This document shows, in pieces, positions 11,360 to 15,755 of a DNA stretch of 64,000 nt. Both the position numbers and the translations under genes were made by a program. Every line of letters starts with the position of its first letter. The first letter of the stretch is position 1. The notes below the pieces were generated by a model that saw nothing but the letters and a program-made list of their open reading frames with translations, did not search any database and was not told where the DNA came from. Origin of the DNA: Methanomassiliicoccaceae archaeon (GTDB lineage: Archaea > Thermoplasmatota > Thermoplasmata > Methanomassiliicoccales > Methanomassiliicoccaceae); NCBI GenBank assembly GCA_963728405.1, contig CAVSJV010000017.1, positions 64,001-128,000 of the forward strand, written 5' to 3'.

Positions 11360-12376
11360 TCACTTGTTGATGCCCAGGGTGCGGTCGGTCTTCTGGATGG
11401 ACCGCATGGCGTCCGGCTCTAGCTTCATCATCGCCCGTATGCAGTCGACGCTCTCGGGGACGACGTCGCTCTCCTGGTGGATACCCTGGTAATAGTACAG
11501 AGTATTGCCGATGACCTTGACCCCGTCCTGCCAGACCACGATCTCCATGAAGTCACCGCGCTCGCGCTTCAGGTCCTTGGCCAGTTCGAGGATCTGAGCG
11601 GTGGTCTTGACCCCGTGCTTGCCGCTGACGAACTTGACCCTCGGAACATTGTCCCAGACCGCCAGAACATCCTGGTCCTTGGCCTTCTTCCTCAGGTCGG
11701 CCACGATGCAGTGGACATGCATGAGGGTGGTCGGGGCCTTCACCGCCATGGTGGTGATGTTGAGCCAGGGCATGATGGTCTGGACGTCCGGTCCGTGGTG
11801 GGTCGGAAGCTTCAACGACGGCTCGAGCGCGTTGAGGGCCGAGCCCTTTAGGTCCGATGGGTCTGCGCCCCTCCTCACGATGGTGGCAGAGACCCTCTCC
11901 AGCCCGAAGACCTTGTCCAGAGGGTAGAGCGTTCTCACCAGTCCGGTGGTGTTGCATGAGACAACGCGGACGAACTGCGCCCCCCAGGCCTCGTTATAAT
12001 TGGCAAAAGCGTTGAACGATATGCCTGCTAGACCATGGTCCTCTCCTCCCTGGAAGATCGCCTTCACTCCGGCCTTCTCGTACAGAACCTTGTAATCCTC
12101 GGCCACCCCGCCGGGAGTGGCATCCACCATGATGTCGACATTCTTCAGCAGGTCGTCGATGGTGCCCTCGACCTTGATGCCGTCCTTCTCGAAGGCCGTC
12201 ACCTGTTCGGTGTTGGCCGTGTAAAGAGGAAAACCCTCCATCCCCGCCAACCTAGCCTCATAGGATGGTCTGGTCTTGGTGACCCCCACGATCTCCATGT
12301 CGTCCTGGGCCTTGATCGCGCAGGCGACCCTCTTGCCGATGGTACCGTAACCGTTGATGCCAACTCTGACCTTCAT
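11360..12376 (-). CDS. gap: Type II (archaeal) glyceraldehyde-3-phosphate dehydrogenase
   Basis: INGYGTIGKRVA, RVVSCNTTGL, HHGPDV, HQESDVVPE. Confidence 0.97.
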   Translation of the reverse strand: MKVRVGINGYGTIGKRVACAIKAQDDMEIVGVTKTRPSYEARLAGMEGFPLYTANTEQVTAFEKDGIKVEGTIDDLLKNVDIMVDATPGGVAEDYKVLYEKAGVKAIFQGGEDHGLAGISFNAFANYNEAWGAQFVRVVSCNTTGLVRTLYPLDKVFGLERVSATIVRRGADPSDLKGSALNALEPSLKLPTHHGPDVQTIMPWLNITTMAVKAPTTLMHVHCIVADLRKKAKDQDVLAVWDNVPRVKFVSGKHGVKTTAQILELAKDLKRERGDFMEIVVWQDGVKVIGNTLYYYQGIHQESDVVPESVDCIRAMMKLEPDAMRSIQKTDRTLGINK

Positions 12377-12569
12377 GCTGTGGTCTCCGTCGAACCTGTC
12401 AATGTCATTGATTCATTATGTGCCTTGTGGTTAGCTACCACAGGGTCACGTGGACGGGATGCCGAAGTGACATAAAGAGATGTAGGACGTTGTCCTCGGT
12501 TCCAGCATTATGAGCGGAAAGATATCACTGCCACATGATAACACGTGTAATGTCAGGACCTCGCAATAC

Positions 12570-12577
12570 TTTATATA
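12570..12577 (+). promoter_or_regulatory. TATA box of the ilv operon
   Basis: TTTATATA ending 25 nt upstream of the leader ATG at 12602. Confidence 0.75.
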
Positions 12578-12601
12578 CATTCTCTATTATTTGGGAGACC
12601 A

Positions 12602-12673
12602 ATGCCTAGCGGTGCCACTAAAAGCTCCATCGTTTCTTCCGTTTTGAGCGTAGTGGTAGTATTGATTAGGTAG
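12602..12673 (+). CDS. Putative ilv leader peptide MPSGATKSSIVSSVLSVVVVLIR
   Basis: 10 of the last 14 codons are Val/Ile/Leu; ATG at the predicted TSS; followed by a hairpin at 12673-12699; directly upstream of ilvB. Confidence 0.72.
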   Translation: MPSGATKSSIVSSVLSVVVVLIR

Positions 12674-12721
12674 AGGCATCCAGCCGTTTGGGTGTCCTCA
12701 CACATTGTAAAGGGTGATTAG

Positions 12722-14392
12722 TTGAGAGGTTCTAAAGCAGTTCTCACATTACTGGAAAATGAAGGGGTCGAGGTCATGTTCGGGTACCCGGGGGGTTCTA
12801 CCCTCACGCTGTACGATGATCTGCTGACCTCAGATATACGGCACGTGCTGGTCCGCCACGAACAGTGCGCGGCCCACATGGCCGATGGATATGCCCGAGC
12901 GACCGGCAAGATCGGGGTGTGCACCTCGACCTCCGGACCGGGCTCCACCAACCTGGTGACCGGGGTCGCCACCGCCTATGTCGATTCATCGCCCATGCTC
13001 GTCCTCACTGGACAGGTCACCACCAGCGCGATAGGCAACCAGGCTTTCCAGGAGGCTGACTCGTTCTCGCTGATGATGCCCATCACCAAGCATAACTTCC
13101 GTGTTCTTACTCCCGGCGAGATCCCAGAGGCCATCAAGAGGGGTGTGGCCATAGCCAACAGCGGACGGAAGGGGCCGGTCCACATCGACCTACCATCGGA
13201 CGTCCAGAAGGCCGAGGTCCCCGAGTCGGAGATGGTCAAGGAATTCCCGTCCCCACCATCCCTGGAGGACTTCTCCAATCTCCCCGAGGCCATCAAGGTG
13301 CTCAAGGGCGCTGAGAGGCCGCTGCTCCTGGTGGGCGGAGGGGTCATCTGGGCCAACGCCAGCCAGGAGGTTGTCAGACTGGCAGAGATGCTCATGGCGC
13401 CGGTCACCACGACCATCATGGCCAAGGGGGTCATCCCCGAGAACCATCCGCTCTCCCTGGGAATCATCGGCATGCATGGAAAGGAGTCGGCCCGCAAGGC
13501 GTTCCTGGAAGCGGACGTCATCCTAGCGGTCGGCACGCGCTTCTCCGACCGCAGTTCCGGCGCGCAATCCGAGCTGCCCATGTCCACGAAGATCATTCAC
13601 GTCGACATCGATCCCGGTGAAGCGGGCAAGTCCGCCCGCACCCAAGTGCGCATGGTCGGTGACGCCAAGAAGGCGCTACAGCTCATCATAGAGGGCCTTT
13701 ACGCTACCAAAGGCGAGACCGCCTGGTCCCTACGCATCAAGGAGATTCTGAAGAACTGCGACTGTGACATTGATATCTCTTCGTCGCCGGTCCTTCCGCA
13801 GTTCGCCATCTGCGAGCTGAACCGCTCCCTGCCGAAGGATGCTATCGTCTGCACCGAGGTCGGGCAGAATCAGATGTGGGCGGCCCACTTCTTCAAGGCC
13901 CGCTACCCGCGGCAGTTCATCACCTCCGGCGGGTTCGGCACGATGGGATTCGGATTCCCTGCATCGCTCGGGGCTAAGACCGCCTTCCCCAACAAGGCGG
14001 TCATCGATATCGCCGGCGACGGCAGCATCCAGATGGTCTCCCATGAGTTCGCCACGGCCGTCTCCGAGAACCTGCCGGTCGTGGTCTGCGTCTTCAACAA
14101 TGGATGGCTCGGGATGGTCAAGCAGTGGCAGAAGCTGTTCAACCAGTCCCGGTACAGCGGCACAGAACTGCGCAACAACCCAGACTTCGTCAAGCTCGCC
14201 CAAGCCTACGGCGCGGACGGGCTGCATGTCGAGCGCTCCTCGGAGCTGAGAGAAGCGCTACATACCGGCCTCAATGCAGGAGTGCCGTTCCTTTTAGATA
14301 TCCACATGGACCCCGAGGAGGACGTCCTCCCGATGATCCCCCCGGGCGCAAACCCCAACACAGTCATAAGAGGTAGGTGCACATGGAAGTGA
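12722..14392 (+). CDS. ilvB: Acetolactate synthase large subunit
   Basis: FGYPGG, RHEQ, TSGPG, AFQE, GDGS...NNGWLGMVKQWQ; TTG start with AGGGTGA Shine-Dalgarno. Confidence 0.97.
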   Translation: MRGSKAVLTLLENEGVEVMFGYPGGSTLTLYDDLLTSDIRHVLVRHEQCAAHMADGYARATGKIGVCTSTSGPGSTNLVTGVATAYVDSSPMLVLTGQVTTSAIGNQAFQEADSFSLMMPITKHNFRVLTPGEIPEAIKRGVAIANSGRKGPVHIDLPSDVQKAEVPESEMVKEFPSPPSLEDFSNLPEAIKVLKGAERPLLLVGGGVIWANASQEVVRLAEMLMAPVTTTIMAKGVIPENHPLSLGIIGMHGKESARKAFLEADVILAVGTRFSDRSSGAQSELPMSTKIIHVDIDPGEAGKSARTQVRMVGDAKKALQLIIEGLYATKGETAWSLRIKEILKNCDCDIDISSSPVLPQFAICELNRSLPKDAIVCTEVGQNQMWAAHFFKARYPRQFITSGGFGTMGFGFPASLGAKTAFPNKAVIDIAGDGSIQMVSHEFATAVSENLPVVVCVFNNGWLGMVKQWQKLFNQSRYSGTELRNNPDFVKLAQAYGADGLHVERSSELREALHTGLNAGVPFLLDIHMDPEEDVLPMIPPGANPNTVIRGRCTWK

Positions 14393-14762: not shown

Positions 14763-15755
14763 ATGGTTACTAAGATCTATCACGATTCCGACGCTGACTT
14801 GGACATATTGAAGGGCAAGAAGATCGCCGTCATCGGCTATGGGAACCAGGGCCGCGCCCAGGCGCTGTGCCTGCACGACTCCGGCCTCAACGTTACCGTA
14901 GGCGCTCGGAAAGGCGGGGAATCCTGGGACATGGCTCAGGCCGATGGCCTGAAGGTCGCCGAGATCCCCGAGGCGGTCAAGGGCGCGGACGTGGTCATGA
15001 TCCTGCTGCCGGACGAGGTCCAGCCCCGGGTGTACAAGGAGCAGATCGCTCCCCACCTGAAGGAAGGCGCTGCCCTGGAGTTCGCTCATGGGTTCGCTAT
15101 CACTTTCAAGCTCATCGCCCCGCCCAAGGACACCGACGTTATCATGGTCGCTCCCAAGTCCCCCGGCCGCATGGTTCGGCAGACCTATCTGGAAGGGTTC
15201 GGGGTGCCGTCGCTCATAGCCGTGGAAAAGGATGCGTCCGGCAAGGCCAAGAAGATCGCCCTGGCATTGGCCAAGGGACTGGGCTCTACCAAGGCCGGCG
15301 TGCTGGAGACCGACTTCCGTGAGGAGGCGACCTCCGATCTGTTCGGCGAGCAGGCCGTGCTGTGCGGCGGAGTGACCGCGCTGATCGAGGCCGGGTTCGA
15401 TACCCTGATTAAGGCAGGCTACAAGCCAGAGATCGCCTATTTCGAGGTACTGCACGAGCTGAAGCTCATCGTCGACCTCATCCAGGCCGGCGGCATGATG
15501 CACATGTGGGACTCCGTTTCCAACACCGCCGAGTACGGCGGGCTGACCCGCCGGGACATGGTCATCAACGAGGACTCCAAGAAGGCCATGAAGAAGATCC
15601 TCGACGATATCAACTCCGGCAAGTTCGCCGAGGAGTGGACCAAGGAGTGGACCGTCGACCTGGCCAACATGAAGAAGCTCGAGAAGGAGGAGTCGGAGAA
15701 GCAGGTCGAGAAGGTCGGCAAGGAGATCCGCTGCCTCTTCGAGCGCAAGTGCTAA
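14763..15755 (+). CDS. ilvC: Ketol-acid reductoisomerase
   Basis: IGYGNQG, APKSPG, DLFGEQAVLCGG, SNTAEYG. Confidence 0.98.
   Translation: MVTKIYHDSDADLDILKGKKIAVIGYGNQGRAQALCLHDSGLNVTVGARKGGESWDMAQADGLKVAEIPEAVKGADVVMILLPDEVQPRVYKEQIAPHLKEGAALEFAHGFAITFKLIAPPKDTDVIMVAPKSPGRMVRQTYLEGFGVPSLIAVEKDASGKAKKIALALAKGLGSTKAGVLETDFREEATSDLFGEQAVLCGGVTALIEAGFDTLIKAGYKPEIAYFEVLHELKLIVDLIQAGGMMHMWDSVSNTAEYGGLTRRDMVINEDSKKAMKKILDDINSGKFAEEWTKEWTVDLANMKKLEKEESEKQVEKVGKEIRCLFERKC

Follow-up and report, generated by a model that had tools for sequence, protein, structure and literature searches.

A conserved Val/Ile/Leu-rich leader open reading frame upstream of ilvBNC in Methanomassiliicoccales: a candidate branched-chain amino acid sensor in Archaea

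The leader peptides ivbL (of ilvBN), ilvL (of ilvGMEDA) and leuL of the enterobacteria belong to the classical transcription attenuators, while the leader open reading frames (ORFs) tnaC and mgtL act through Rho-dependent termination. To our knowledge, Archaea do not have Rho. A short ORF with a run of Val, Leu and Ile codons is described here, located directly upstream of the ilvBNC operon of a Methanomassiliicoccaceae archaeon (to be referred to as the leader ORF). It lies in a stretch of 64,000 nucleotides (nt) of contig CAVSJV010000017.1 (assembly GCA_963728405.1, positions 64,001 to 128,000 of the forward strand), which is the window of this analysis and from the first letter of which positions are counted. 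The genome to which it belongs has a size of 2.73 Mb, in 18 contigs.

Two bacterial systems with leader ORFs that lack a ribosome binding site or are leaderless have been reported. In Corynebacterium glutamicum, the leader peptide of the ilvBNC attenuator is made without a ribosome binding site, and the leader is a three-hairpin transcription attenuator, according to the portion of the paper available here (PMC11857589). In mycobacteria, polycysteine leaderless short ORFs are Cys-responsive translational attenuators, again as given in the portion available (bioRxiv 10.1101/834739). A full-text search of open-access articles and bioRxiv, with subscription journals outside its scope, found bacterial systems only and no description of leader-peptide attenuation of an archaeal amino acid operon. 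The portions available of three further papers (PMC13158618, PMC1262725 and PMC4833913) do not mention an archaeal leader peptide.

The best overall explanation of the leader is a cis-acting, ribosome-read sensor of the supply of branched-chain aminoacyl-tRNA for ilvBNC, with a probability of about 0.72.

The leader ORF and its relatives

The leader ORF is located in the 345-bp spacer between ilvB and the divergent GAPDH gene (11360-12376, minus strand). Ten of its last 14 codons encode Ile, Val or Leu, and its final seven sense codons are the Val/Leu/Ile run and an Arg codon. The ten codons are GTT (two), GTA (three), GTG (one), TTG (two), ATT (one) and ATC (one). Among the 490 ORFs of at least 400 amino acids (aa) in the genome, GTC and GTG make up 80% of the Val codons, ATC 75% of the Ile codons, and CTG and CTC 70% of the Leu codons. 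Eight of the ten leader codons each have a usage of only about 10% for their amino acid in these long ORFs, which bears out the codon bias that had been claimed in an initial annotation of the window. The TATA box, the 23 codons, the hairpin arms, and the Shine-Dalgarno (SD) sequence of ilvB are likewise found where that annotation had placed them.

A search for IlvB was carried out over 41 genomes (the same genome and others of the genus, family and order), and the 30 best loci, from 30 genomes including this one, were examined. All 30 have an ORF of 21-26 codons with an Ile/Leu/Val-rich end, the stop codon being 47-58 nt before ilvB. The C-terminal ends in the relatives include VVVVLIR, AVVIIIS, VGIIIR, SVVLTS, and VIVVL or AVVIL. 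Over the last ten codons of the 30 distinct leaders, 70% are Ile, Leu or Val (V 34%, I 19%, L 17%). There is synonymous variation between lineages, both for Ile (ATT/ATC/ATA) and for Val (GTA/GTC/GTT/GTG). In the last eight sense codons, the second position is T in 68% and never A, and the third position is mixed. The N-terminal half is not conserved, and the hydrophobic stretch has only about 8-10 residues. The leader lengths fall into classes of 63, 66, 69, 72 and 78 nt, every one a multiple of three. Over the 30 leaders there is no stop codon in the frame of the ORF, against 90 and 53 in the other two frames.

Of the 29 loci with readable upstream sequence, 28 have a TATA-like octamer (7-8 of 8 matches) whose 5' edge precedes the start codon, ATG or GTG, by 29-32 nt. 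This distance predicts a transcription start near the start codon, and the leader ORF would then be leaderless; in the window, transcription probably starts at, or within a few nt of, the ATG at 12602.

A covariance model (R1), built from 32 leaders, has a single match in the genome under study. In a sample of 151 genomes from the order, it finds a match in 75, among them 22 of 23 in family f1, the only genome in f2, 39 of 47 in f3, all four in f4 and 8 of 10 in f6; the one genome of f5 has no match, and family f7 will be considered below. In one Methanomassiliicoccales genome, ilvB is present as two paralogues in tandem, and a separate leader precedes each of them (L034:2528-2643). R1 matches twice, at a distance of about 2 kb, in three further genomes, all of one genus.

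Several controls in the same genome bear on chance occurrence. An upstream frame with at least eight Ile/Leu/Val among its last ten codons, ending 15-80 nt before the start codon, is found for only one of 1,148 ORFs of at least 300 aa, and that one is ilvB; the next best score is 6, reached 16 times. There are 198 short ORFs located 27-36 nt after a TATA-like motif, and the ilvB leader is the only one with at least 7 of 8 Ile/Leu/Val. Together with the conservation in 30 of 30 loci, these genome-wide controls exclude chance: the leader ORF is not a chance ORF. A loose genome-wide screen finds 33 Ile/Leu/Val-rich short ORFs upstream of long ORFs. The two others that were checked adjoin unrelated genes, a radical-SAM/intein gene and a PAS gene. 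Short ORFs containing Trp and short ORFs containing Cys in this genome were looked at briefly and dropped.

The same genome has a related leader in front of leuA. A short ORF of this type, whose Leu-x-Leu-Arg core is conserved, is found at 27 of the 30 best leuA loci from the 41 genomes, usually with its stop codon exactly 38 nt before leuA, and at least two Leu are present in the last 12 codons in 27 of 30 relatives; in the other three loci, the ORF was miscalled or not found by the script. The last ten codons of the leuA leaders have L 33%, I 7% and V 3%. Leaders of leuA are therefore rich in Leu, whereas those of ilvB are rich in Val, Ile and Leu, so the composition of the leader follows the pathway, as it does in bacteria. 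The SD sequence and first codons of leuA are located in a small conserved hairpin. A weaker R1 match is present in two congeners of the archaeon. In the one examined (L151:202-273), the ORF ends in VKVAVSVV* and is followed by a P2-like hairpin (P2 is described in the next section), a 59-aa ORF and the gene for a 599-aa AMP-binding acyl-CoA synthetase. This leader may link the activation of branched-chain acids to the same control.

Leaders of this kind are also found beyond the order. Among 77 ilvB loci with upstream sequence that were scored, from a collection of named genomes, Ile/Leu/Val-rich ORFs followed by a hairpin occur in Methanomassiliicoccales and in five other Thermoplasmata records, while most records from Bathyarchaeia, Methanosarcinales and bacteria have scores of 5 or less. 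The five other Thermoplasmata leaders would be leaderless as judged by the TATA distance. In their predicted folds, the 5' end is paired with the final Ile/Leu codons, as a P1 helix, and a long P2 extends across the stop codon, with A/GTGTCC again in the 3' arm of this hairpin. A further set consists of 18 loci with closely related IlvB from relatives of an Archaeoglobus record (L154-L171; in L154, upstream of position 1501). Of these, 17 have a presumably leaderless ORF of 10-28 codons that ends 16-38 nt before ilvB, with final residues such as IIVVLL or VVVVLF. A run of four to seven T (T4-T7) follows within 15 nt of the stop codon in ten of the 17, in some together with a hairpin, a variant of the design that looks closer to a terminator. 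A P1-like pairing is significant in only 6 of the 17, so P1 is not universal outside Thermoplasmata. With R1 at an E value of 0.01, none of 11 other Thermoplasmata or Archaeoglobi loci was matched, and these leaders are known from ORF analysis only.

RNA structure of the leader

The minimum-energy folds of all 30 leaders contain the same two helices, P1 and P2. P1 is formed between the first ~20 nt of the message and the Val/Leu/Ile run and stop codon. It is a new helix, absent from the description in the initial annotation. The cognate P1 duplex has an energy of -14 to -26 kcal/mol in all 30 loci, and in 24 of them it beats at least 88% of the non-cognate partners, taken from lineages with a different run. 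Nine of its 15 pairs have changed on both sides. The third position of the fourth Val codon, for example, varies in the relatives (GTA/GTC/GTT) and is matched by the 5' strand of P1, and divergent runs have matching 5' strands, an AAC-repeat that faces a GTT-repeat being one example.

P2 is a hairpin, and in most loci its first base is the last base of the stop codon. In the window, its arms are GAGGCATCCA (12673-12682) and TGGGTGTCCTC (12689-12699), with 10 bp, one bulged U and an energy of -14.5 kcal/mol. It is present in all 30 loci (-8.8 to -18.8 kcal/mol), and 93.6% of its cells are paired in the MAFFT alignment and 94.5% in the model-fitted alignment. Among the most distant loci, base pairs of the upper stem covary, and the GAGG/CCUC base is invariant (33/33 in the model-fitted alignment). 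The 3' arm has 8 of its 11 bases in common with the 3' end of the 16S rRNA of the same genome (L184:1501-1515), by a hand alignment, and the 5' arm is SD-like.

For the two helices together, 79.6% of cells pair in the MAFFT alignment, which was not fitted to the structure, a figure that drops to 38-49% after a shift of the partners by 1-3 columns. Shuffled alignments have a covariation score of 0.109 and the original one of 0.173, a value that none of 500 shuffles reaches; as the sequences are related, the count is not a probability. Twelve of 26 pairs have changed on both sides in the MAFFT alignment, and the model-fitted alignment agrees. The predicted helices P1 and P2 are thus well supported by covariation. 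From the plain MAFFT alignment, RNAalifold recovered no more than the base of P2, and P1 was seen through the folds of individual sequences and a structure drawn by hand. Among 21 pairs of leader segments that were scanned, P2 has a mean z score of -3.97 and P1 of -2.72. The third pairing, between the 5' arm of P2 and the spacer with the SD sequence, has a z score of -1.55, and the rest are near zero.

These results also bear on the initial annotation. It had proposed that Ile/Leu/Val-rich short ORFs and covarying stems be sought before ilvB and leuA in related genomes, and both are found there. Its statement that no U-tract follows the hairpin, and its view that the output would hence not be intrinsic termination of the bacterial type, agree with the sequence of the window. 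It had further noted that AGGCAT in the 5' arm could pair with ATGCCT at the start of the leader in an alternative fold. The complementarity exists in the window but is not conserved, with a mean z score of 0.00 in the 30 relatives.

Other candidate elements in the leader were rejected. A second small ORF, starting from the A/GTG in the 3' arm of P2, has no start codon in 5 of 30 loci, and the relation of its frame to that of ilvB varies (the same frame in 6, a stop at or overlapping the ilvB start in about 9-10, and elsewhere in about 9), no better than chance. In-frame readthrough of the amber stop codon of the leader is not conserved. The CATTG motif downstream of P2 could be a cleavage or binding site; its pairing with the 5' end of the message as a closing helix has a mean z score of -0.47, with 10% of sequences significant.

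Proposed function and alternative explanations

As read from the sequences, the leader ORF is well supported as a branched-chain amino acid leader peptide, and the sensor part of the proposal, taken alone, is highly probable. The leaderless ORF would be the first cistron of the message, with transcription from at or next to the ATG at 12602. A shortage of charged Val, Ile or Leu tRNA would make a ribosome stall within the run. With the Val run in its A site, such a ribosome would cover the 3' strand of P1, and P1 would be open. By the geometry of the ribosome footprint, a ribosome stalled there ends short of P2, and P2 would stay folded in front of it. A ribosome that is not starved would instead proceed to the stop codon, melt most of P2 and be released. 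P1 and P2 would then close and bury the 5' start region. Because this closure hides the start region, the pioneer ribosome would in essence be the only one to read the leader of a given transcript.

The output that we prefer is a one-time, co-transcriptional decision on whether the transcript continues into ilvB, made through premature 3'-end formation or termination with a factor such as aCPSF1/FttA, and not through a terminator of the hairpin-plus-U type. The single reading imposed by P1, the lack of a sequestering helix and the T runs of the Archaeoglobi leaders weakly favor such a transcriptional output; these runs are the kind of T-rich signal that is found at the end of ilvC in the window. 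We hold this part tentatively, at somewhat less than even odds.

Several observations weigh against the proposal. Translation of the leader ORF, ribosome stalling, and the direction and level of regulation are all things that we infer. Simple models of coupling give the wrong sign, with stalling leading to less read-through, which makes the transcriptional output a conjecture. No mutually exclusive helices were found among the 21 segment pairs (pairings of the 2:3 type have z scores of 0.1-0.4, and P1 and P2 do not compete), so no known conversion of stalling into increased expression can be read from the RNA. The P2 hairpin is followed by ACACATTGTAAAGG in the window, with no U-tract, and a run of four or more T is present in only about a third of the leaders of the order, where it is located in the P2 loop. 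Within the family, 34 nt over the codon run and the 5' arm of P2 are almost invariant, third codon positions included. At least part of the constraint must therefore act on the RNA as such, and P1 could have shaped the Val codons instead of the reverse. In family f7, R1 finds the leader in none of 64 genomes, so the element is not needed by all members of the order; the ilvB of the f7 genomes in the 41-genome search is of a different type, 51-54% identical. Finally, trpE and hisG of the same genome have no comparable leader upstream.

The first alternative keeps the sensor and changes its output. The position of the leader ribosome, or a hand-over from the terminating ribosome, would alter initiation at the SD sequence and TTG start of ilvB, much as in the leaderless poly-Cys short ORFs of mycobacteria, or ermCL. 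In support of this, ilvB, with a strong SD sequence of its own, follows the leader stop at 48 nt. The complementarity between the 5' arm of P2 and the spacer with this SD sequence is above chance, 53% of the 30 sequences having a z score below -1.64, and the P2 arms resemble SD and anti-SD sequences. In addition, five Archaeoglobi leaders stop 16-22 nt before the ilvB start, so that a terminating ribosome would cover the SD sequence. The closest leaderless system that has been studied experimentally is also translational, as far as the available portion of that report goes (10.1101/834739).

The folding results do not agree with a translational output. The initial annotation had suggested that the leader be folded with a ribosome masked at the Val run or at the stop codon. 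In partition-function folding, neither the SD sequence nor the start of ilvB becomes consistently more or less accessible when a ribosome footprint is masked over codons -7 to -1 or over the stop. The window from SD to start has values of 0.37-0.41 in all states, and the ilvB start plus 11 nt has values of 0.40 and 0.41 (p 0.29). The leuA leaders likewise show no consistent change. The control-codon run does not pair with the ribosome binding site of ilvB (z scores of 0.09 for the SD spacer and 0.44 for the start region), and in the 30 leaders neither folding nor the segment scan reveals a conserved or predicted pairing that would hide the SD sequence or start. Moreover, P2 is far more stable than any competitor and would reform after the ribosome leaves. 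Overall, a translational output is rather unlikely. Control of mRNA stability is an alternative output of the same sensor.

A second alternative is that the leader is a structured RNA that acts without being translated, as a protein- or ligand-binding leader or a 5' stabilizer, with the ORF and its Val/Ile/Leu codons as by-products of P1. The strong nucleotide conservation within the family, which extends to third codon positions, the two helices, the invariant bases of P2 and the burial of the 5' start region in P1 are all consistent with this. The conserved features of the leader are dependent on the frame, however. The frame is open in every lineage, while the other frames average 3.0 and 1.8 stops, and all insertions and deletions are multiples of three. 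The start codon is located at the predicted transcription start in the 28 loci mentioned above, and the stop codon has a fixed place relative to P2. Unrelated P1 sequences, such as those with GTGATTGTTGTTTTG and ATTATCATT, still encode Ile/Leu/Val, and the leuA leader is rich in Leu instead. A search of Rfam gives no match at the gathering threshold in the window, and none at E values up to 10 in positions 12540-12780. We consider an untranslated structured RNA, or a riboswitch, improbable.

It is hardly credible that the ORF encodes a small hydrophobic protein acting in trans, or arose by chance in an AT-rich spacer: the C-terminal half is hydrophobic and the loose screen shows that such ORFs occur elsewhere in the genome, but the hydrophobic stretch is too short and the N-terminal half too variable for the former, the element is always attached to ilvB, or elsewhere to leuA or the acyl-CoA synthetase gene, and the conservation and genome-wide controls argue against the latter.

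A bolder extension of the preferred sensor with transcriptional output is possible and a good deal more doubtful than the sensor itself. There might be an archaeal class of leaderless sensory leader ORFs, forming a branched-chain 'ribulon' (ilvBNC, leuA and acyl-CoA synthetase) in Thermoplasmata and Archaeoglobi, with a logic that is not known from bacteria. In place of competing hairpins, it would have a helix between the 5' start region and the control codons, so that each transcript is read once, and a hairpin with SD-like and 16S-3'-end-like arms abutting the stop codon. The state of this hairpin when the pioneer ribosome stalls or terminates would decide whether aCPSF1/FttA ends the transcript before ilvB.

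The locus and comparison with known systems

The features discussed here are listed in Table 1. Residue 1 of ilvB is aligned with position 1 of the Pfam profile, and the protein is 87% identical to that of a record named 'uncultured Methanomassiliicoccus sp.'. The ORF between ilvB and ilvC has no significant Pfam match, only weak matches to ACT and ACT_AHAS_ss (E 0.03-0.06), and may encode a divergent or short small subunit of acetolactate synthase. Three T4 runs are located 3' of the end of ilvC. Outside the window, ilvD (dihydroxy-acid dehydratase) is matched in two overlapping frames of 225 and 375 aa (contig C7:356671-357614 of the same genome), which is either a frameshift or an assembly error in the draft genome. 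A radical-SAM gene just upstream of the window (contig C17:53700-56100) has Hint/intein-splicing and LAGLIDADG domains between its radical-SAM matches, and appears to be interrupted by an intein.

Table 1. Positions of the leader, operon and related features (in the window unless a locus is named)
Feature	Location	Strand	Evidence or remark
TATA box TTTATATA of the leader/ilvBNC promoter	12570..12577	+	Octamer kept in relatives
Leader ORF, 23 codons + TAG, MPSGATKSSIVSSVLSVVVVLIR*	12602..12673	+	ATG 12602-12604; TAG 12671-12673; open frame in 30/30 related loci
P1 5' strand, leader codons 1-7	12603..12620	+	Minimum-energy fold; cognate duplex energies; covariation
Control-codon run GTA GTG GTA GTA TTG ATT (VVVVLI), mostly rare codons	12650..12667	+	Codon usage and relatives
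P1 3' strand, Val/Leu/Ile run + Arg codon + first two stop bases	12651..12672	+	Minimum-energy fold; cognate duplex energies; covariation
P2 hairpin, GAGG/CCUC base	12673..12699	+	From last stop-codon base; in 30/30 loci
CATTG motif	12703..12707	+	3-4 nt after P2; ATT nearly invariant in order (alignment)
SD sequence of ilvB, AGGGTGA	12711..12717	+	Complementary to 16S 3' end of the same genome
ilvB, acetolactate synthase large subunit, 556-aa thiamine-pyrophosphate enzyme	12722..14392	+	TTG start; Pfam TPP_enzyme_N, _M, _C, E 1e-40 to 4e-52
Probable ilvN (small subunit), 124 aa	14377..14751	+	Assigned by position between ilvB and ilvC
ilvC, ketol-acid reductoisomerase	14763..15755	+	Pfam KARI_N and KARI_C, E 3e-73 and 2e-57
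leuA leader, putatively leaderless 21-codon ORF VIEAQAMCIIAIKVALILREY*	L119:3132-3197, contig C4 of the same genome	-	38 nt before leuA start
Other Thermoplasmata leaders, 28-codon putatively leaderless ORFs, e.g. ...ILVVLGVLVDLRILRP*	L037, L040, L041, L042, L045; ~150 nt upstream of position 701 (667 in L037)		ORF analysis

Ribosome-mediated attenuation is a textbook consequence of coupled transcription and translation in bacteria, and the leader described here is a concrete, widely conserved candidate for it in Archaea. The paralogous leaders, with codons matched to their pathways, offer a handle on the crosstalk between the archaeal ribosome, RNA polymerase and termination factors, as well as on the regulation of leaderless mRNAs and the control of branched-chain amino acid synthesis in methanogen-related archaea. 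As there are no alternative hairpins and no U-tract, the output mechanism should turn out to be either factor-dependent termination put to a new use or translational control of a new kind.

The leader resembles ivbL, ilvL and leuL in several respects. A short ORF is located directly before a biosynthetic operon and has a run of codons for the amino acids of the pathway itself, the residues encoded match the pathway (Val/Ile/Leu before ilv genes, Leu before leu genes), and there is a hairpin at the leader stop codon. It is unlike them in being archaeal and probably leaderless, with no SD sequence of its own, in having neither mutually exclusive antiterminator and terminator helices nor a U-tract, in the pairing of its control codons with the 5' end of the message, and in matching no leader family in Rfam. 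The initial annotation had described the architecture as that of the ilvL/ivbL attenuators. The clustered codons for the end products fit this description, whereas the helices do not, and the interpretation given there is therefore partly supported.

With tnaC and mgtL, the leader shares the lack of an intrinsic terminator and a logic by which the position of the ribosome near the stop codon would decide the action of a termination factor. Unlike in those systems, the factor would not be Rho, which Archaea are not known to have; aCPSF1/FttA in this role, and any site for it, is conjecture.

The attenuator of C. glutamicum, as described in the portion of the paper available, likewise precedes ilvBNC, has a leader rich in hairpins and encodes a leader peptide without a ribosome binding site, as the TATA distance predicts here. 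It differs in its three hairpins, compared to only two, non-competing helices here, and the T-run signal of the archaeon is missing after P2.

There are also differences from the mycobacterial poly-Cys ORFs, as these are presented in the available part of the report: the codon tract here pairs with the 5' end of its own message, and in no ribosome state does folding predict that the SD sequence and start of ilvB are hidden. The likeness to them is otherwise close. In both, a leaderless sensory short ORF is the first cistron (here as judged by the TATA distance), the tract of control codons forms part of an RNA duplex, whose formation a stalled ribosome would prevent, and several operons of one pathway have such ORFs (here ilvB, leuA and acyl-CoA synthetase), in the manner of a 'ribulon'.

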